A stretch of DNA of 64,000 nt from assembly GCA_963843145.1 (NCBI GenBank), contig CAWJJC010000027.1, forward strand, positions 256,001 through 320,000, read 5' to 3'. The number at the start of each line of letters is the position of its first letter. The first letter of the stretch is position 1. Shown piece after piece: positions 210-9,326 of this stretch. The stretch comes from an uncultured delta proteobacterium (GTDB taxonomy: Bacteria > Desulfobacterota > RBG-13-43-22). Both the position numbers and the translations under genes were made by a program. The notes under the pieces are model-generated. The model ran no database searches. It had not been told where the DNA came from and saw only the letters and a program-made list of their open reading frames with translations.

Positions 210-443
210 TTAAGATAAAGCAATTACCGGAACCGAAATAATTTCCTGGGGGACCAGCCTGTCTTCCTCTCGCATCATTTCTCCAATTTTTTCAGCCCAT
301 TTGCCCGGGATATATTGTTCGCCACACTGGCGGCATTGGCTGAGCGGAAACCCTCTAAAAATAATCAAAGTTCCATCTTTCTTCGTCATTCTTACGGAAC
401 CAATTGTTTGGATGACTTCGCCACCGCATTCAAAACACTTCAT
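210..443 (-). CDS. YgiT-type zinc finger protein (MqsA-like antitoxin N-terminal domain)
   Basis: 77 aa, CFEC...CRQCGE motif, SD GGAGG upstream. Confidence 0.8.
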   Translation of the reverse strand: MKCFECGGEVIQTIGSVRMTKKDGTLIIFRGFPLSQCRQCGEQYIPGKWAEKIGEMMREEDRLVPQEIISVPVIALS

Positions 444-1001: not shown

Positions 1002-1355
1002 TCACCGTGGCGGTAGTTCCAGATGAATCCGGATGGCCTCCTCCAGGGCTTTGATTGCCCCGGGATCCAGTCGACCAATCATTTTGAACAGGCGGGCCTT
1101 GTCCAGGGTGCGGATTTGGTCGGCTTTCGCCTTGGAATCTTTGGTCAGACTCCCTTTTCCTTTGGGGAGCAATACTTCAAAAGGAAAACTTCTCTCCAGG
1201 TTTCGGGGAGTGATAGGCAGGATGGTTACTGTGTCGGAAAAACGATTATTGAGGTCGTTGGAAACCACCACCACCCGCCGGGTCTTGGCGATTTCCTTTC
1301 CCTTGACCGGATCGCGGGAAGGCTTACCGGTCACGCGAATCGCGGGATTGGCCAC
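1002..1355 (-). CDS. mazF: PemK/MazF family toxin, N-terminus aberrant, no adjacent antitoxin
   Basis: DPVKGKEIAKTRRVVVVSND...DQIRTLDKARL motifs; canonical N-terminal RG(D/E)I strand missing. Confidence 0.75.
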   Translation of the reverse strand: MANPAIRVTGKPSRDPVKGKEIAKTRRVVVVSNDLNNRFSDTVTILPITPRNLERSFPFEVLLPKGKGSLTKDSKAKADQIRTLDKARLFKMIGRLDPGAIKALEEAIRIHLELPPR

Positions 1356-2312: not shown

Positions 2313-2819
2313 TTATTTTACATTTTTCAGGCGGTCGTTGAAGTCCTTCCAGAACTGCCCCTCCTTGTTTTGCCAGTCGGGGCCGAAACGGGCATTGAAG
2401 AAATTCCCCAGTTTTTCGAAGAGCCGTTTCCAGCCGGGCAATTGTTCATAGCGGAGGATATCCTCTAGAAAAGGGACAATCTCCCCCATTTTTTCTTTGG
2501 GCAGGTAAGCCCGGGCACCCAATTCAATGGACTGCTGTATCGCTTCCGGGGTCAAGGCATGGGCGGTCAGCATAGCCACCGGGAAATTTCGCACCCGGGC
2601 CAGGGAAAGGAGATCAAACCCTCGCACCCCCATGATATCCAACACCACCAGGTCGTAGGTCCAGGAGATCATGAGTTCCTTGGCCAGCTCGTAGGTGCCG
2701 GCCTCGTCGATCTGGCAGTCCGGACAGGCTTCCTGGATTTCCTCCCGCAGCAGGTCCAACACATCCGGTTCATCATCGACAATCAGCAGGCGCAAATTTT
2801 TCAACAGCGATTCTTTCAT
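2313..2819 (-). CDS. Stand-alone response regulator receiver with Trp-rich C-terminal tail
   Basis: IVDDEPD, LDIMGVRG, MLTAHA, YLPKEK motifs; tail GWKRLFEKLGNFFNARFGPDWQ. Confidence 0.85.
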   Translation of the reverse strand: MKESLLKNLRLLIVDDEPDVLDLLREEIQEACPDCQIDEAGTYELAKELMISWTYDLVVLDIMGVRGFDLLSLARVRNFPVAMLTAHALTPEAIQQSIELGARAYLPKEKMGEIVPFLEDILRYEQLPGWKRLFEKLGNFFNARFGPDWQNKEGQFWKDFNDRLKNVK

Positions 2820-2865
2820 GGTCTCTCCTCTTTCGATACTTTTTCAGGTAATCTTTAAGGACGGC

Positions 2866-4632
2866 TTATTCGATGTCTTTGATCTCCACGGCCTTCAGCG
2901 CAATCCCGGCCTCCTTCACCTTCCGGGAAAACTCCTCTAGCAAGGCGTTGAGCGCCAGTCGGTGATCCTCCCGGTAAAAGAGGAAGAGACTCGTCATCTT
3001 CCGTTCGACCCGGCCGCCTGCCGGACCGGCCAGGCCCAGGTCCCGAGAAACCTGCTGCAGGTGGTTCCGGATTTCTTCCATGGTCTGGAAACGGTCTTTC
3101 GGGTCTTTGCGCGTGGCCTTTTGGATAAATCGGCAGAGCCCTTCCGGTAATTCAGGGACCCAATCCCGGGGATCGGGAATTTCCCGGGTCAGGTGGGCTT
3201 CCATTAAAATGGAAGGGTCGTCCTCGGGATAAGGCCGCACCCCGGTGCTCAGCTCAAAGGTCATGATGCCCAGCGAATAGATATCGGCCCGGCCGTCAAC
3301 CAGTTCTCCTTCGATCTGTTCCGGCGAAACATAATGGGGAGTTCCCAGACTGCAGAGGGTGTCCGTGCCCGGCGGACAGGCCAGGCCGAAATCCAGGATT
3401 TTCAACTGATCGGTCGAGGGCAAAAAAATATTGGCCGGCTTAATGTCCAGATGCACCAGCCCTTTCTCATGGGCGTATTCCAATCCGGAAATAATCGGAT
3501 AGAGCAATTCCAGAATCTGGGCGACCGGCAGCGGCCCGAGTTTTTCCAGGAGGGCGTCGAGCGGGGTTCCCTCCAGGTACTCCATGATAATAAACAGTGT
3601 TCGATAACGCTCCTCAAAGTCGTAAACCTTGACGATGTGCGGGTGATTCAAAGCGGCCACGTTCCTGGCCTCCTGACGAAAATTCCGGATAAAATCCGGA
3701 TCCATGGCCATATCGTGTTTCATCATTTTGATGGCCACCGGCATTTCGAGGTCCAGGTGGCGCCCTTTATAGACGATGCTGTACCCCCCCTGGCCGATGA
3801 TATCGGTGATCAAATATTTGCCGATGGTCCGGTCGGCGGTGATATTGGAGGAAGTAAAACGGTAGGCCACCAGTTCGGTGAGGAATTCCCGCAGATCGGG
3901 ATGTTCTGTGGACAGGAGGTCAAATCGCTCCTTGGTCAACCCCCAGAGGACCAGATCGGTCTCGGCCGTCACCCGGGCGCTTCGGGGTTCCCCGGTAAGC
4001 ACGGCCATCTCGCCCACCAGATCCCCTTCCCGGAGACGGGTGATAAAGATCAATTCGCCGCCCTTCTCCAGATGGACCAAACAGGACCCCCGCTGGATGA
4101 TAAAAAAAGTATCCCCGGGATCCCCCTGGTTGATGAACCGTTCCCCGGCCGGGACCGATACGCGGAAAATGCTGTTCAGGACTGGAGCAACCGCCTTGCG
4201 GGGGATAGCCTGCAAAAGCTTGGTGCGGAGAAAAAACTCATAATCGGTTGTCAGCGGACGACGGTTGTCTCCGTTAGCCGGGGGGTGGGGGATCGGCCAT
4301 TGCTGATCCGCCGGATGAAGGTCCAGACCTAAGTGGAAGAGGCCTTCTTTTTGACTCACCGGGGCGCACCAGACGACCCGGCCCTGAAAAGGACTCCAGA
4401 TTTTTTCTTTGGGGGAGTAAACCTCCAGGCCGATGGGAGTCCCTTCCTCCAGGGCGGAATCGGTCAGGGCCAAAAACCCGTTCCGGCTTTCATTGAGGAG
4501 ATCTACAAAAAGAGGAACCCACTCCGTTGAAGCGGGGGAAAAAGGCTCCTTGAGGGAAGAATAAAGGGCGCCTATTTTCGGGACTGACCGTCCCTCCCTG
4601 GCCGATCGGCGGCGTTCCGATTGAGGATTCAT
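2866..4632 (-). CDS. PilZ + cyclic-nucleotide-binding + Ser/Thr protein kinase
   Basis: RRSAR and NESRNG (PilZ RxxxR, NxSxxG); GEMAVLTGEPRSA (cNMP); GQGGYS, VAIK, HLDIKPAN, DFG, SPE (Hanks kinase). Confidence 0.85.
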   Translation of the reverse strand: MNPQSERRRSAREGRSVPKIGALYSSLKEPFSPASTEWVPLFVDLLNESRNGFLALTDSALEEGTPIGLEVYSPKEKIWSPFQGRVVWCAPVSQKEGLFHLGLDLHPADQQWPIPHPPANGDNRRPLTTDYEFFLRTKLLQAIPRKAVAPVLNSIFRVSVPAGERFINQGDPGDTFFIIQRGSCLVHLEKGGELIFITRLREGDLVGEMAVLTGEPRSARVTAETDLVLWGLTKERFDLLSTEHPDLREFLTELVAYRFTSSNITADRTIGKYLITDIIGQGGYSIVYKGRHLDLEMPVAIKMMKHDMAMDPDFIRNFRQEARNVAALNHPHIVKVYDFEERYRTLFIIMEYLEGTPLDALLEKLGPLPVAQILELLYPIISGLEYAHEKGLVHLDIKPANIFLPSTDQLKILDFGLACPPGTDTLCSLGTPHYVSPEQIEGELVDGRADIYSLGIMTFELSTGVRPYPEDDPSILMEAHLTREIPDPRDWVPELPEGLCRFIQKATRKDPKDRFQTMEEIRNHLQQVSRDLGLAGPAGGRVERKMTSLFLFYREDHRLALNALLEEFSRKVKEAGIALKAVEIKDIE

Positions 4633-4688
4633 GCTTCTCCCCTTGTTCTTTGGATAGTAATAAATGCTAGGACATTAATTCTGAAAAC

Positions 4689-5261
4689 TTAATAAAACCC
4701 CAGCTTCTGGCCCGGCGTTTCCACATAAGATATGCCGTCGGTCTTCAATTTTTCATTAAATTCCTTCCAGAATGGTTCATCATCCATTTGCCAATCCGGT
4801 CCAAAGCGCCGGCTGAAATAATCGCCCAACCGTTCAAACAGGCGCCGCCAACCCGCGATCGGTTCGTGGGCTAGGACATCCTCCAGGAAGGGAACTATTT
4901 CTCCGATCTTTTCTTTCGGCAGATAGGCCCTGGCGCCCTGCTCTATGGCTTTCTTCAGGGTTTCGGGAGAGAAGGCATGAGCCGTGAGCATCACCACCGG
5001 AAATTTTCGCTTCACCGCCTGGGTCAGGAGGTCAAAGCCCCGAACGCCCATGATATCCAAAATAACCAGATCGTAGGAAATCGAGCTCAGCAAATCCACG
5101 GCCCACTCGTACGTCTCGGCCTTGTTCACCCTACAGTTCGTACAGGCCTCGCCGATCTCTTCCTCCAGCAGGCTGAGGATATCCGGCTCGTCATCTACAA
5201 TCAAGATACTTATATTCTGAAGCTTGGAGTCCATGGTCCTTATCCCTTCCTGATCGGCCAT
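4689..5261 (-). CDS. Stand-alone response regulator receiver, paralog of 2313-2819
   Basis: Same LDIMGVRG, MLTAHA, YLPKEK and GWRRLF...RFGPDWQ motifs. Confidence 0.85.
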   Translation of the reverse strand: MADQEGIRTMDSKLQNISILIVDDEPDILSLLEEEIGEACTNCRVNKAETYEWAVDLLSSISYDLVILDIMGVRGFDLLTQAVKRKFPVVMLTAHAFSPETLKKAIEQGARAYLPKEKIGEIVPFLEDVLAHEPIAGWRRLFERLGDYFSRRFGPDWQMDDEPFWKEFNEKLKTDGISYVETPGQKLGFY

Positions 5262-5286
5262 TCGGGGGTGTCAACAAAATCGTCCG

Positions 5287-6594
5287 TTATTTAATCACCA
5301 CCCGGTCGAAGCGGCCCCCGATTTGGCCCGAAAAAGAGTTCCAGAACCTGGTATCCTTCTGCTGCCAGTCCGGGCCGAAGCGGCGGTCAAAAAAATCTCC
5401 CATGCGGCCGAACAGGCGATTCCAACCCTCTTCATTTCCGTATAGCAGGATATCCTCCAGGAAGGGAACTACATCCCCCAGTTTCTCCTTGGGCAGATAG
5501 GCCCGGGCGCCCTTCTCAATGGACTTTTTCAGGGACTCCGCGGACAAGGCATGGGCCGTCAACATAGCCACCGGCAACCCTCGTCTTTTGGCCTCGTCCA
5601 GCAGCTCGAAACCCCGGACCCCCATAATGTCCAGGATCACCAGATCGAATGGTTCCTTGGCCAGATACTCCATGGCCTGATCATAGTTCGTGGCCCGTAG
5701 AATCCGACATCCCCGGCATTCCGCGTTAATCTCCTCCTCCAAGATATCCAGAACATCGGGTTCATCGTCCACCGCTAAGATAGATTTATCGTTCAGAATT
5801 GAATCCTTACCCATTGCCGACTCCTTTCTTCGGTATAGAGGGGGAATGATAACGGTGAAGGTTGTACCCGCCCCTTCCCGACTTTTCAATGTGATTTCAC
5901 CTCCCATGGCCTCGACCAGAGTCTTCACACCGGCCAAGCCCAGGCCCAACCCCGCCAAAGGAAAGACGGCAGCCGGCTCCAATTGAACAAATCGACCAAA
6001 AATCGTTTTCTGCCCCTCGGTCGAGATCCCCGGCCCGTCATCTTCTACCTGAATGACTAAATCCGCCTCTCCGGCAATCTGAATCCGGACTTTTTTTCGG
6101 CGGTATTTCAAGGCGTTGCTGATCAGGTTGCGCAGTATTTGCTGGATCTTTCGTTGGTCATGGCAAAAAAAAGAGCTGCAGAATCTTCCTTCGACCCGAA
6201 AGAAAATCCCCTGGGATTCCAAGAGGGTCTGAAATTCATGGGGTTGGACGGCTTGGAGAAGCCGATCATGAATCTGGGGCAGCGTTACCCCCAGGGCATC
6301 CATCAAGGCCTCCCGCAAAGCCGGTTCCAGGTAAAAATATTCCCGTTGGAAAATCCCCTCCTCGGAGCGCAGGATTTCAATCATCTCCTGGATCAAGCAC
6401 TGGGACTTTTGGACGTTCCGAGCGATTCGCTCCATAACCTGACTCTGTTTTTCATTCAAAGGCCCGTACCGTTCCCCTCGATGGAGGAGGTTATGGACAC
6501 TGGTGGCCGCAACCGCCAAGGGGCTGCGCAGGTCATGGATGAGAAGGTCGAAAAGACGTTCCTTGTCCTGGAGAGGGTATTTATCTTGGGTCAT
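5287..6594 (-). CDS. Cytoplasmic hybrid histidine kinase (HisKA-HATPase-REC)
   Basis: HDLRSPL H-box at about residue 20; NLISNALKY, DDGPGI, GLGLG boxes; C-terminal REC of the same family. Confidence 0.85.
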   Translation of the reverse strand: MTQDKYPLQDKERLFDLLIHDLRSPLAVAATSVHNLLHRGERYGPLNEKQSQVMERIARNVQKSQCLIQEMIEILRSEEGIFQREYFYLEPALREALMDALGVTLPQIHDRLLQAVQPHEFQTLLESQGIFFRVEGRFCSSFFCHDQRKIQQILRNLISNALKYRRKKVRIQIAGEADLVIQVEDDGPGISTEGQKTIFGRFVQLEPAAVFPLAGLGLGLAGVKTLVEAMGGEITLKSREGAGTTFTVIIPPLYRRKESAMGKDSILNDKSILAVDDEPDVLDILEEEINAECRGCRILRATNYDQAMEYLAKEPFDLVILDIMGVRGFELLDEAKRRGLPVAMLTAHALSAESLKKSIEKGARAYLPKEKLGDVVPFLEDILLYGNEEGWNRLFGRMGDFFDRRFGPDWQQKDTRFWNSFSGQIGGRFDRVVIK

Positions 6595-6781
6595 AGCGCT
6601 CCTGATGGTTCCGAGGCTTCCATTTGAATTTTTGGTTTAAATTTGAAATCCGAAACAAATCCAAATGCCCGCATAGCAACTTCATCCTAATAAAGAGTCA
6701 TCCCGCTAAATACAATAAAGAAAGCGATAAGAATTTAGCCTAATAATTGCTTTTTATCAACTCCTTTTCAAGGGGGAGATC

Positions 6782-6810
6782 TTGACAGTCTGGAGGGATT
6801 CGTTTATAAC
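6782..6810 (+). promoter_or_regulatory. sigma70 promoter of bio operon
   Basis: TTGACA-17 bp-TATAAC. Confidence 0.75.
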
Positions 6811-6840
6811 TGTAAACCTTATTGAACAAATTGGTTAACA
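6811..6840 (+). promoter_or_regulatory. BirA operator
   Basis: TGTAAACC-N14-GGTTAACA dyad right after the -10 box and before bioB; matches the BirA box pattern. Confidence 0.8.
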
Positions 6841-6853
6841 GACAGGAGAAACC

Positions 6854-7847: not shown

Positions 7848-9326
7848 ATGGAAGACGGAAGACGGAAGAGGGAAGAAAAAAAACGGCGGGAAAAGAGCAA
7901 CCCGACCCCTTTGGCGCTCAGCGCTCAGCGCTCAGCCCTTTGCGCTTTGCGTGAAAAAACTGAACCCGCTCAAGAGCGGAACCAAAAAAAACTAGCCCGC
8001 TGGGATCATCACTATCTCTGGCACCCTTTTACTCCCCAGCAGTATTGGGAAAGGGAAGAGCCGTTGATCATCGAGCGCGGCCGGGGATTCTATCTTTATG
8101 ATACCCGGGGTAATCGCTATATCGACGGCGTTTCCTCCCTCTGGGTAACCGTACACGGGCATGGCCACCCGAAACTGAATCGGGCCATTAAAGCCCAACT
8201 TGCGCGGATGGCCCATTCTACCCTGCTCGGTCTTTCCCACCCGCCGGCCATCACCCTGGCCAGGGAGCTGATTCAGGCGGCGCCCGAAGGCCTGCAACGG
8301 GTCTTCTATTCCGACTCCGGATCTACCGCGGTGGAGGTCGCCCTGAAGATGGCTTACCAGTTCTGGGCCAATCAGGGGCGGCGGGACAAAAAGACCTTTC
8401 TCTGCCTGGAAAATGCCTATCACGGGGATACGCTGGGGGCCGTTAGCGTGGGAGGCATCGCGCTGTTTCACCAGGTCTATCAACCCCTGCTCTTTAAAAC
8501 GGTTCAAGCCCCTTCCCCCTACTGTTACCGCTGCCCGCTCCGAAAAAAACCGGATACCTGTCGGATCCAATGTCTGGATCGCCTGGAGCAGGTCATGGCC
8601 CGGCGCCATCGCTCCCTAGCCGCCTTTATTTTGGAACCGCTGGTTCAAGGAGCGGCTGGGATGATCACCTTCCCCTCCGGGTACTTGAAAAGGGCCCGCG
8701 AACTATGTGATCATTATAAAATCCTGATGATCGCCGATGAGGTGGCCGTGGGTTTTGGCCGGACCGGGACCCTTTTTGCCTGTGACCAGGAAAAAGTAAC
8801 CCCGGACCTGCTCTGCCTGGGAAAAGGGATTACCGGCGGGTATCTCCCCCTGGCGGCCACTTTGACCACCGAGACCCTGTACCAGGCCTTTTTAGGTCCG
8901 GTGGAGGCCTTAAAAACCTTTTACCACGGACACACTTACACGGGGAATCCTTTGGCCTGTGCCGTGGCGCTTGAGAATCTAAGTCTGATGCACGAACAGA
9001 ATTTTTTCAAAAAACTTCAAGAAAAAATTCTGTATATGAAAGGGCTGCTGGAGCCTTTTGACGGGCTGAGACAGGTGGGGGAAGTCCGACAGAAGGGGTT
9101 GATGGTGGGCATCGAACTGGTTCAGGACAAAGGATCCAAGATCGCTTACCCGCTGGAAACCCGCATGGGTCATCGGGTTATTCTCGAGGCCCGGAATCAG
9201 GGGATCATCATCCGCCCCCTGGGAGACGTCATCGTTCTCCTGCCGCCACTGGGTATCTCGCTGCCGGGCTTGAAACAGTTGGTTCAGGGAACCTACCGGG
9301 CCATAGAAAAGGTTACCGGGCCTTAA
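7848..9326 (+). CDS. bioA: Adenosylmethionine-8-amino-7-oxononanoate aminotransferase (true start probably ~7950)
   Basis: LWHPFT, SDSGSTAVEVALKMA, YHGDT, IADEVAVGFGRTG, LGKGITGG; the first ~30 codons are heptamer repeats. Confidence 0.92.
   Translation: MEDGRRKREEKKRREKSNPTPLALSAQRSALCALREKTEPAQERNQKKLARWDHHYLWHPFTPQQYWEREEPLIIERGRGFYLYDTRGNRYIDGVSSLWVTVHGHGHPKLNRAIKAQLARMAHSTLLGLSHPPAITLARELIQAAPEGLQRVFYSDSGSTAVEVALKMAYQFWANQGRRDKKTFLCLENAYHGDTLGAVSVGGIALFHQVYQPLLFKTVQAPSPYCYRCPLRKKPDTCRIQCLDRLEQVMARRHRSLAAFILEPLVQGAAGMITFPSGYLKRARELCDHYKILMIADEVAVGFGRTGTLFACDQEKVTPDLLCLGKGITGGYLPLAATLTTETLYQAFLGPVEALKTFYHGHTYTGNPLACAVALENLSLMHEQNFFKKLQEKILYMKGLLEPFDGLRQVGEVRQKGLMVGIELVQDKGSKIAYPLETRMGHRVILEARNQGIIIRPLGDVIVLLPPLGISLPGLKQLVQGTYRAIEKVTGP

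Follow-up and report, generated by a model that had tools for sequence, protein, structure and literature searches.

Receivers with an unnamed Trp/Phe-rich tail and a minimal sensor-less kinase at a putative two-component locus in Desulfobacterota

The DNA considered here is a stretch of 64,000 nucleotides (the window) from an uncultured delta proteobacterium of sulfate-reducer type in the Desulfobacterota lineage RBG-13-43-22 (assembly GCA_963843145.1, contig CAWJJC010000027.1, positions 256,001 to 320,000 of the forward strand). Its subject is a cluster of four genes on the minus strand, at window positions 2313 to 6594, which encodes a hybrid histidine kinase, two free receiver proteins and a Ser/Thr kinase (STK). 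The receivers belong to an unnamed receiver subfamily with a conserved tail, for which the working name receiver-tail is used below. With a probability of about 0.55, the locus is a cytoplasmic, branched two-component module that is built on this subfamily and has a phosphorylation-switched output by protein contact, with the STK as a lineage-specific addition. The locus is rated as a two-component system; what is new is the receiver subfamily with its output tail and, elsewhere in the family, the transporter fusions.

The four-gene cluster

The initial annotation, made from the sequence alone, described four co-oriented genes, and the list of open reading frames (ORFs) agrees. They occupy positions 5287-6594 (435 amino acids, the hybrid kinase), 4689-5261 (190 amino acids, receiver-tail paralogue 2), 2866-4632 (588 amino acids, the STK) and 2313-2819 (168 amino acids, paralogue 3) of the minus strand, and the gaps between them measure 25, 56 and 46 nucleotides. 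In a consensus scan, promoter-like sites are confined to the intergenic region 5' of the hybrid gene (6595-6853), where two overlapping sites with 9/12 matches each lie at 6732-6771 on the minus strand, and no terminator-like site is seen between the four genes. The flanks are unrelated to the cluster, with bioB/A/F/D divergently upstream and a MazF-like toxin and a HepT/MNT pair downstream. Transcription of the hybrid and STK genes is hinted at by contigs of an RNA library that may include DNA, which match the hybrid gene at 5292-5557, 5910-6060 and 6136-6286 (97-99% identity) and the STK gene at 3865-4079 (about 91% identity); the fifth contig match is a 36-nucleotide piece only. One wetland metatranscriptome contains 5% of the sampled words, and stretches without cover by metatranscriptome contigs carry no meaning.

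The hybrid gene joins a minimal HisKA-HATPase core to a tailed receiver, as delimited by its ORF and Pfam matches, and the core has the features of a HisKA-type kinase. The DHp domain at 6355-6564 (residues 11-80) matches HisKA with 28.0 bits (cut-off 26.9) and carries the H-box HDLRSP at residue 20. The ATP-binding domain at 5842-6159 (residues 146-251) matches HATPase_c with 93 bits (cut-off 26.4) and carries the motifs NLISNALKY, DDGPGI, IFGRF and GLGLGL, so that the H, N, G1, F and G2 boxes are intact, at residues 20, 156, 185, 198 and 215. Only 19 residues lie ahead of the H-box His, as the initial annotation had said (fewer than 20), and the open frame could extend the N-terminus by at most 14 codons; the usual N-terminal sensor or transmembrane region is not present. 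Short N-termini occur in relatives too, as in the protein P0158, whose HisKA domain begins at residue 14, and in the hybrids of 418-449 amino acids encoded by genomes G003, G006 and G108. The core is followed by a receiver domain at 5485-5781 (Response_reg, residues 272-370, 52.7 bits), with VDDE at residue 275, DIMGVRG at 322, LTAH at 345 and PKE at 368, and by a Trp/Phe-rich tail at 5320-5433 (about residues 388-425), which was placed by alignment of the three receivers and matches the hidden Markov model (HMM) of the tail at 7e-19. A kinase plus three receivers had been proposed for the cluster; there are indeed three receiver copies, but one of them is the C-terminal half of the kinase, which is thus a hybrid kinase.

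Receiver domains and their motifs

Of the free receivers, paralogue 2 (4689-5261) has its Response_reg domain at residues 19-117 (54.1 bits) and its tail at 4755-4853, and paralogue 3 (2313-2819) has the domain at residues 12-109 (46.6 bits) and the tail at 2337-2435, the latter tail also being visible in a structure model. All three PF00072 matches of the cluster lie above the cut-off of 30.2 bits, and the free receivers share 55-56% identity with the receiver of the hybrid. VDDE, DIMGVRG, LTAH and PKE are carried by all three, and the phospho-chemistry residues are invariant in both receiver alignments. Because the acidic pair, the acceptor Asp, the Thr and the Lys are kept, the three receivers are predicted to be phosphorylatable.

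Receivers typically have a Lys followed by a cis-Pro (K-P) and a canonical length of the beta3-alpha3 loop, although neither is strictly defining. The receivers of the cluster depart from both, since each has PKE in place of K-P and lacks two residues of the usual beta3-alpha3 loop, such that alignment to 3a0u requires two one-residue gaps. The DIMGVRG loop, the PKE and the conserved tail that the initial annotation had pointed out are present in all three receivers. The tail pattern that it gave matches exactly in the two free receivers (at residues 137 and 129), and the hybrid's receiver has the invariant tail columns by alignment. These motifs are not a chance effect, because the short loop and a Lys followed by a residue other than Pro are found in 84/84 family genes from 80 other genomes. 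These 84 genes come from 80 loci of species-representative genomes of Syntrophorhabdus, Desulfomonilaceae, Desulfobacterales, Desulfatiglandales and NaphS2.

Separately, a CxxC motif lies in the alpha1-beta2 loop, at residues 32-35 of the 168-residue receiver and 40-43 of the 190-residue receiver; C34 and C37 are invariant in the three-receiver alignment, and by eye the motif is present in most of the 15 close homologues inspected. As a redox or metal site of the whole family it was dropped, being present in only 10/84 family genes, and it may be a site of this kind that is specific to a sub-clade.

No DNA-binding family is matched by any of the four proteins in Pfam or NCBIfam, in agreement with the initial annotation, and NCBIfam matches to DNA-binding regulators span the receiver part only and fall far below their cut-offs. 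The receivers thus lack the C-terminal DNA-binding domain of response regulators of the OmpR, NarL, NtrC and LytTR types. As there is no DNA-binding output, an output at the protein level is a reasonable inference.

An unnamed tail with two predicted helices

The tail comprises about 45 residues, is rich in Trp and Phe and also contains basic residues. It was called unnamed at the outset, and this description holds, given that it matches no known output domain. No Pfam or NCBIfam family covers it in any scanned family member, and a profile built from 22 receiver-tail members finds no PDB sequence match to it, with 89 distinct PDB sequences matched and, among the 60 listed, none reaching past profile position 134 of 169. 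An AlphaFold2 (AF2) model of the 168-residue receiver, with a predicted local distance difference test score (pLDDT) of 86.7 and a predicted template-modelling score (pTM) of 0.82, has a (beta-alpha)5 core, which runs from a strand at residues 10-14 to a helix at 108-123, followed by helices at residues 126-145 and 155-165. Foldseek matches of this model cover about 120 receiver residues only and leave out the tail. An exhaustive structural search places the core with CheY-type receivers (CheY 6tg7: Z 15.7, root-mean-square deviation 1.8, 120 residues aligned), and finds that the first tail helix overlays the alpha6 linker of NarL/LuxR-type receivers, with VraR 7ve6 at Z 15.4 (131 residues aligned over 8-150) and DesR 4ldz at Z 15.3 (132 aligned over 7-148). 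Together with 3cz5 and RcsB 5o8y, these structures align through residues 148-155 of the receiver. A model of the beta5-alpha5-tail segment alone (pLDDT 71.9, pTM 0.36) has 0 PDB matches in Foldseek at E<=10, which is weak evidence for a new fold because the pTM is low, and the best scores of an ESM Atlas look-up of residues 110-168 are 0.79-0.81, at noise level.

The composition of the tail raises the alternative that it targets the membrane, whereby an amphipathic Trp/Phe/Lys-Arg helix would act as an in-plane anchor that moves the receiver to the membrane upon phosphorylation or dephosphorylation, with proximity rather than specific docking as the result. The first helix is amphipathic, with a hydrophobic moment of 0.5-0.56 and a mean hydrophobicity near zero, Trp and basic residues are abundant, and membrane transporters are among both the fusion partners and the gene neighbours of the family. 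An amphipathic character does not by itself decide between the readings, however, and the AF2 monomer has ordered tail helices with a pLDDT of about 80. The overlay of the first helix on alpha6 of VraR and DesR suggests that it packs on the receiver core, and receivers fused to DctQ are already membrane-tethered yet keep the tail. Membrane targeting as the role of the tail is accordingly judged very improbable.

Size and distribution of the receiver-tail family

Of 8000 candidates scored against the 168-residue receiver, 7827 proteins are relatives at E<=1e-3. Those listed, 120 in number, are 64-98% identical to it over nearly the full length, match PF00072 only and have generic names (CheY-like, response regulator); they come from Thermodesulfobacteriota or from 'Deltaproteobacteria' metagenome-assembled genomes, and they share the short loop (120/120) and the PKE (116/120). 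In a search of 1.84 billion proteins, a profile of the beta5-alpha5-tail segment matches 417 cluster representatives (clustering at 50%) at E<=0.001. Within the phylum, the tail profile matches 25/201 sampled genomes (17/141 genera), with 1-12 matches each, and as far as sampled the family is restricted to Desulfobacterota-type genomes. Among 21 long or odd representatives scanned from the best 150 of the 417, 14 have a Response_reg domain, 5 are fragments or unassigned, and 2 are repeat proteins with spurious multiple matches; these fragments and repeat proteins excepted, none of the 21 carries the tail without this receiver.

The genome of the window holds the three clustered copies and one orphan, located between amidase and metallo-beta-lactamase genes. 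A match on contig C29 was rejected as an independent fifth copy, being a 94-99% identical duplicate of a region of contig C28: C29:5000-23000 is an inverted copy, at that identity, of part of C28:468000-486000, the orphan receiver-tail gene included. The bin has 6.89% contamination, and the copy points to strain heterogeneity or to a contig duplicated within it.

Conserved kinase partners

The recurrent partner of the receiver-tail genes is a short, sensor-less kinase of 244-320 amino acids that matches the kinase core of the window at E values of 1e-36 to 1e-75. It lies within 300 nucleotides of 18/84 family genes (16/67 where at least 1 kb is present on both sides), and it directly adjoins the receiver-tail gene in 8/62 loci of a second set that does not overlap with the first. 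Histidine kinase genes reach a density of 2.07 per 10 kb at 0-1 kb of family genes, compared with 0.10-0.34 beyond. In eight loci (L005, L008, L019, L052, L064, L066, L076 and L082), the short kinase is adjoined by a larger, cytoplasmic HisKA kinase with GAF or PAS-GAF domains, and a GAF/PAS-HisKA-HATPase kinase also stands beside the receiver cluster in G001, a genome of the same genus as the window. The arrangement extends to cultured Desulfonema magnum 4be13 (L153), where a PAS-PAS-GAF kinase of 775 amino acids and a short kinase of 260 are followed by a receiver-tail. Related layouts are a kinase of 628 amino acids with a hybrid of 437 and a receiver-tail of 163 in G006, and two receiver-tails with a divergent hybrid of 418 amino acids in G108, which belongs to another family; in both genomes and in G003 the core cluster occurs without an STK.

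The GAF/PAS kinases that precede the short kinase in L005, L008, L019, L052, L153 and L099 have weak HATPase_c matches (36-46 bits), in which some 105 profile positions take up about 140 residues, so that the ATP-binding domain would contain an insert of roughly 40 residues; for these reasons the activity of these kinases is in question. Two further layouts recur. A Desulfobacterales module (L027, L047, L057, L058, L065 and L067) comprises a SIR2-family gene, small ORFs, a receiver-tail convergent with a short kinase, a Memo-like protein and an M50 peptidase. In Syntrophorhabdus-type loci (L005, L007, L008 and L014), a GAF kinase, a short kinase and a receiver-tail come after MlaD and ABC-auxiliary lipoprotein genes on the same strand.

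The strength of the kinase association could also mean that the system is centred on the kinase itself. Tailed receivers with no downstream target would then act as phosphate sinks or as allosteric feedback regulators of the short kinase and its GAF/PAS partner, in the manner of DivK on its kinases or of RedF/RedE in RedCDEF, and the tail would dock on the kinase. The kinase is the most strongly enriched neighbour, one receiver copy is fused to it, there are several near-identical receivers per kinase, and the recurring module of GAF/PAS kinase, short kinase and receiver-tail resembles RedCDEF with its sensor kinase, kinase-like protein and single-domain receiver (PMC2755868). Most family genes are nevertheless orphans with respect to kinases (18/84 adjacent), and a kinase-centred role leaves unexplained both the fusions to DctQ, USP, SnoaL_4, V4R and Fer4 and the placement at the ends of transporter operons that have no kinase nearby. 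It is therefore considered distinctly unlikely.

The Ser/Thr kinase and its linkage to the receivers

The third gene of the cluster (2866-4632) encodes a protein of 588 amino acids in which Pfam matches and motifs delimit three parts. The protein kinase catalytic domain at 3061-3807 (Pkinase, PF00069, residues 276-524) scores 176.7 bits (cut-off 31.7) and has GQGGYS, VAIK, HLDIKPAN, DFG and SPE; its catalytic loop reads HLD, so that the kinase is non-RD. The cyclic-nucleotide-binding domain at 3919-4161 (cNMP_binding, PF00027, residues 158-238) scores 67 bits (cut-off 27.5) and has RSA at residue 217. Domains of this kind are defined by a phosphate-binding cassette, and for its Gly-Glu a pattern search gave no match, with GEMAV being read in the STK translation. 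The N-terminal region at 4303-4632 is PilZ-like. PilZ domains are defined by the motifs RxxxR and [DN]xSxxG, and both are present here (RRSAR at residue 8, NESRNG at residue 47); the match to the PilZ profile PF07238 (residues 41-107) reaches 17.1 bits, below the cut-off of 22.5. Among six STK orthologues, RxxxR is kept in 6/6 and [DN]xSxxG in 4/6, and a PilZ identity of this region is at best likely. The protein had been described as a PilZ-cNMP Ser/Thr kinase with input from cyclic di-GMP (c-di-GMP). The cNMP_binding and Pkinase parts of this description stand, and the PilZ part, with the c-di-GMP input, depends on a sub-threshold match and the two motifs.

The initial annotation went further and joined the four genes into one relay, a hub in which His-Asp phosphotransfer, cyclic nucleotide (cNMP), c-di-GMP and Ser/Thr phosphorylation converge and the tail is a docking module. 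Spelled out, the tail would bring the receivers to both kinases, and the STK might, for example, phosphorylate the receivers or the kinase core, or phosphorylated receivers might control the STK. The tight spacing of the genes and the lack of a terminator-like site between them fit this idea, as do the intact kinase motifs and the non-RD loop of the STK. Full-length STK orthologues (60-87% identity) were found at 7 loci in 6/40 related genomes, and receiver-tail neighbours are present at three of the seven: G002 keeps the whole four-gene order, G001 has a GAF kinase, hybrid, receiver-tail and STK, and G004 has the STK with two receiver-tails at a contig end. Other points in favour are the fusion of a receiver-tail to a cNMP_binding domain in P0190, a TPR-PilZ-STK gene 3 kb from a receiver-tail gene on the opposite strand in L017, and a CHASE2 adenylate/guanylate cyclase (L100 5312-7354, minus strand) two genes downstream of the cluster in G002.

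The wider survey largely fails to bear out this linkage to the STK. An STK is found near 1/80 receiver-tail loci, the one in L017, and near 0/62 loci of the second set; the recurrent partner in these neighbourhoods is the short kinase. The remaining four STK orthologue loci (two in G018, one each in G012 and G005) lack receiver-tail genes over a distance of at least 3.6 kb. In G003, which belongs to the genus of the window and is 94% complete, a hybrid of 449 amino acids stands in tandem with receiver-tails of 162 and 183 amino acids and no STK, and no STK orthologue is found in that genome at E<=1e-40. P0190 is a singleton cluster, the PilZ match is sub-threshold, and no orthologue of the G002 cyclase in the window's genome adjoins the cluster; a cyclase domain of only 40% identity at C27:251226-251834, about 7 kb away, was not used as evidence. 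Given this sparse linkage, the four-signal hub is a genus-level arrangement, and the conserved system consists of the short kinase and tailed receivers. A single four-gene relay is thus unlikely; what survives of the proposal is the protein-level output, which is reasonable, and the unnamed tail. The survey shows the STK to be a recent local addition in the window's lineage.

Three observations concern the STK genes of individual genomes. In G002, the CHASE2 cyclase may locally produce the cNMP that the STK senses. The STK orthologue of G001 (L099 8743-10386) looks broken, with its N-terminal PilZ-like part on a separate, overlapping ORF, and so does that of G012 (L097 8008-9780), in which an in-frame TAG leaves products of 181 and 384 amino acids.

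Transporter contexts and fusions

Clustering of 586 ORFs within 4 kb of receiver-tail genes, followed by naming of cluster representatives, reveals a second recurrent context. Besides kinases (31 loci), the neighbours include Liv-type ABC ATPases (17 loci), permeases (10) and binding proteins (7), the TRAP proteins DctM (11) and DctP (9), and acyl-CoA ligases (10 and 5). In 10 loci (L010, L020, L027, L038, L039, L041-L044 and L080), a run of Liv genes in one orientation closes with the receiver-tail gene, and in 5 (L013, L052, L059, L073 and L078) a run of TRAP genes does so; the receiver-tail gene comes first in 4 loci (L040, L046, L055 and L075) and is convergent in 7. A transporter gene is the immediate neighbour in 19/80 loci, and per 10 kb there are 1.62 transporter genes at a distance of 0-1 kb and 0.34 at 6-8 kb.

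A transporter subunit is also among the fusion partners. P0250 joins DctQ to a receiver-tail, and in total 41 clusters (90% identity) combine PF04290 with PF00072 in proteins of 312-353 amino acids; they come from four sources, one of them on a 5.2 Mb contig. The Lys followed by a non-Pro residue is present in 41/41 of these clusters, the short loop in 39/41 and a match to the tail HMM in 38/41. In L107, the DctQ fusion sits between DctP and DctM. A locus search with the single fusion P0250 gave three unrelated receiver matches only, and a repeat with an alignment as query gave one full-length fusion among species representatives, that of L107. USP-receiver-tail fusions occur in L042, L044, L048, L056, P0172 and P0205, and in reverse order in P0231; Pfam finds no Usp domain (PF00582) in the window's proteins, so that these fusions belong to other genomes only. 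Further fusion partners of the receiver-tail are SnoaL_4, V4R/XylR_N, Fer4, the PEP-utilizer mobile domain and the short kinase, a FIST-GAF-HWE kinase is fused to it in L041, and in P0267 it is followed by a second receiver. In P0181 (723 amino acids) and P0375 (516 amino acids), the receiver-tail is fused to parts of phosphoenolpyruvate (PEP)-utilising or PPDK-like enzymes (the PF00391 mobile domain; PF01326), which hints at a link to PEP-dependent phosphotransfer.

From these contexts, it can tentatively be proposed that receiver-tails are phosphorylation-controlled gates of solute importers. A free or DctQ-fused receiver would bind a transporter through its Trp/Phe tail and switch uptake post-translationally, with TRAP membrane subunits and Liv-type ABC ATPases as the proposed bound subunits. 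Phosphate would be donated throughout by the short sensor-less kinases, which would in turn take their input from GAF/PAS, cNMP or redox sensors in the cytoplasm, and the module of the window, with its three receivers and its cNMP/c-di-GMP STK, would be a central controller that acts on distant targets.

Proposed mechanism

In the preferred reading of the locus as a branched two-component module, the minimal DHp-CA kinase would autophosphorylate and then serve as phosphodonor for all three receiver-tails, the fused one and both free paralogues. Phosphorylation would alter the presentation of the tail, which would be the output end and contact a protein target rather than DNA. For the family at large, cytoplasmic GAF/PAS kinases encoded next door, or small-molecule or redox sensor domains fused to the receiver-tail, may supply the input. 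The Liv-type ABC and TRAP contexts and the DctQ and USP fusions make a solute importer a plausible target in many lineages. In the genus of the window, the gene for the cNMP-regulated, possibly c-di-GMP-regulated STK, which lies between those of the two free receivers, most likely provides a lineage-specific extra input or target.

Several observations weigh against this reading or limit its reach. At the level of the receivers, normal switching could be changed, or even prevented, by the loss of the K-P proline together with the short loop. Among the Pfam matches of the four proteins, to which this search was confined, there is no Hpt family, and as the four genes contain no HPt domain a classical multistep relay is not supported. 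With respect to the transporter contexts, the receivers of the window adjoin no transporter, the association is weaker in the second set (6/62 loci), 107/155 immediate neighbours of family genes are unclassified, and the receiver-tail loci stem from related species and are not independent. Context labels also cluster on a FastTree tree of 193 rows (38 changes versus 81-99 when shuffled, and 38 versus 53-64 without the DctQ fusions), a result that speaks of clustering only, since kin share labels. On this tree the copies of the window sit with L003, L004 and the orphan of their own genome (labelled 'other') and with L031 (kinase context), outside the TRAP and ABC sub-clades, and no starred clade contains them. 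Because the labels cluster in this way, sub-clades may have different functions, and what the transporter contexts suggest may not hold for the copies of the window. Finally, the tight spacing of the STK gene and its retention in G001, G002 and G004 suggest that the STK is functionally tied to the receivers in this lineage, which the family-wide picture leaves unexplained; the STK may be the relevant local partner of the window's receivers.

Comparison with known systems

The receiver-tails are similar to the single-domain, CheY-like regulators CheY, DivK and MrrA in that they are stand-alone receivers with all phospho-chemistry residues, no DNA-binding domain and a fold similarity of Z about 15. 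They are unlike these proteins in having a two-helix tail of about 45 residues, a loop two residues shorter and PKE for K-P, in their restriction, as sampled, to Desulfobacterota-type genomes, and in their fusion to DctQ, USP and sensor domains. DivK acts on its kinases. MrrA has been termed an 'integrating hub' (PMC5964349).

In the RedCDEF 'four-component' system of Myxococcus xanthus, a sensor kinase, a sensor-less kinase-like protein and single-domain receivers are encoded together, and RedE is reported to be unable to autophosphorylate (PMC2755868). The layout of GAF/PAS kinase, short kinase and receiver-tail is similar, as a comparison of gene layouts only, and the short kinase of the window keeps all catalytic boxes. 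RedF is not known to carry this tail.

TeaD, the USP of the TeaABC TRAP system, offers a functional analogy only. It is a small cytoplasmic regulator whose gene closes a TRAP operon, a position that receiver-tail genes take in some loci, and USP-receiver-tail fusions exist; unlike TeaD, the window's proteins have neither a USP domain nor a transporter neighbour, and Asp phosphorylation would be the means of control. Where a USP gene accompanies a TRAP system, its product is reported to be a negative regulator of that system (PMC11574862); a review of TRAP transporters makes no mention of TeaD, USP or response regulators (PMC5812351).

The hybrid resembles phosphorelay hybrid kinases in having a kinase core with a C-terminal receiver, and its best NCBIfam match is the NahK/ErcS hybrid family (110 bits versus a cut-off of 400). 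It differs from them in lacking a sensor region and an HPt partner within the four genes, and in that its fused receiver is paralogous to the free ones and shares their tail. Lastly, the superposition of the first tail helix on alpha6 is a likeness to NarL/FixJ-type receivers (VraR, DesR and RcsB), from which the receiver-tails differ in that no GerE/HTH domain follows and that nothing in those receivers corresponds to the second tail helix or to the FG..W...FW motif.

Genes flanking the cluster

Downstream of the cluster, a HepT-like RNase toxin is split into two overlapping ORFs (1334-1820 and 1807-2205 on the minus strand for the region that also includes an intact MNT/Polbeta nucleotidyltransferase gene beside it), with ORF 1587-1820 covering profile positions 1-45 and ORF 1334-1621 covering positions 55-118. 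The pieces are probably a frameshifted toxin of a HepT-MNT pair. Next to them, 1002-1355 (minus strand) encodes a PemK/MazF-like toxin (85.9 bits) with no recognised antitoxin adjoining it, and 210-443 (minus strand) is a Cys-rich ORF of 77 amino acids without a Pfam match. In the same-genus genome G002, a MazE-like ORF is located just downstream of the receiver cluster.

Upstream, the bioA-like aminotransferase ORF at 7848-9326 (plus strand) has about 68 residues rich in Lys, Arg and Glu ahead of its Pfam domain, for which reason its true start may lie downstream. A gap of 175 nucleotides separates this ORF from the bioF-like gene.

Implications for receiver biology in Desulfobacterota

No description of the receiver-tail family or of a DctQ-receiver fusion was found in print, in a search of mainly open literature that covered subscription journals thinly and so does not prove absence; the remark in the initial annotation that this is not a described system is in keeping with that result. 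Output-less receivers are common in two-component signalling, and few have known targets. The subfamily described here is large and sharply defined and has a conserved output tail, a minimal kinase dedicated to it and DctQ fusions in 41 clusters, and a cultured carrier of the family exists in Desulfonema magnum 4be13. That the STK of the proposed hub is a recent local addition guides which partners matter first for experiments. If the proposed gating of importers is true, anaerobic degraders of organic and aromatic acids among the Desulfobacterota would control nutrient uptake directly through Asp phosphorylation.

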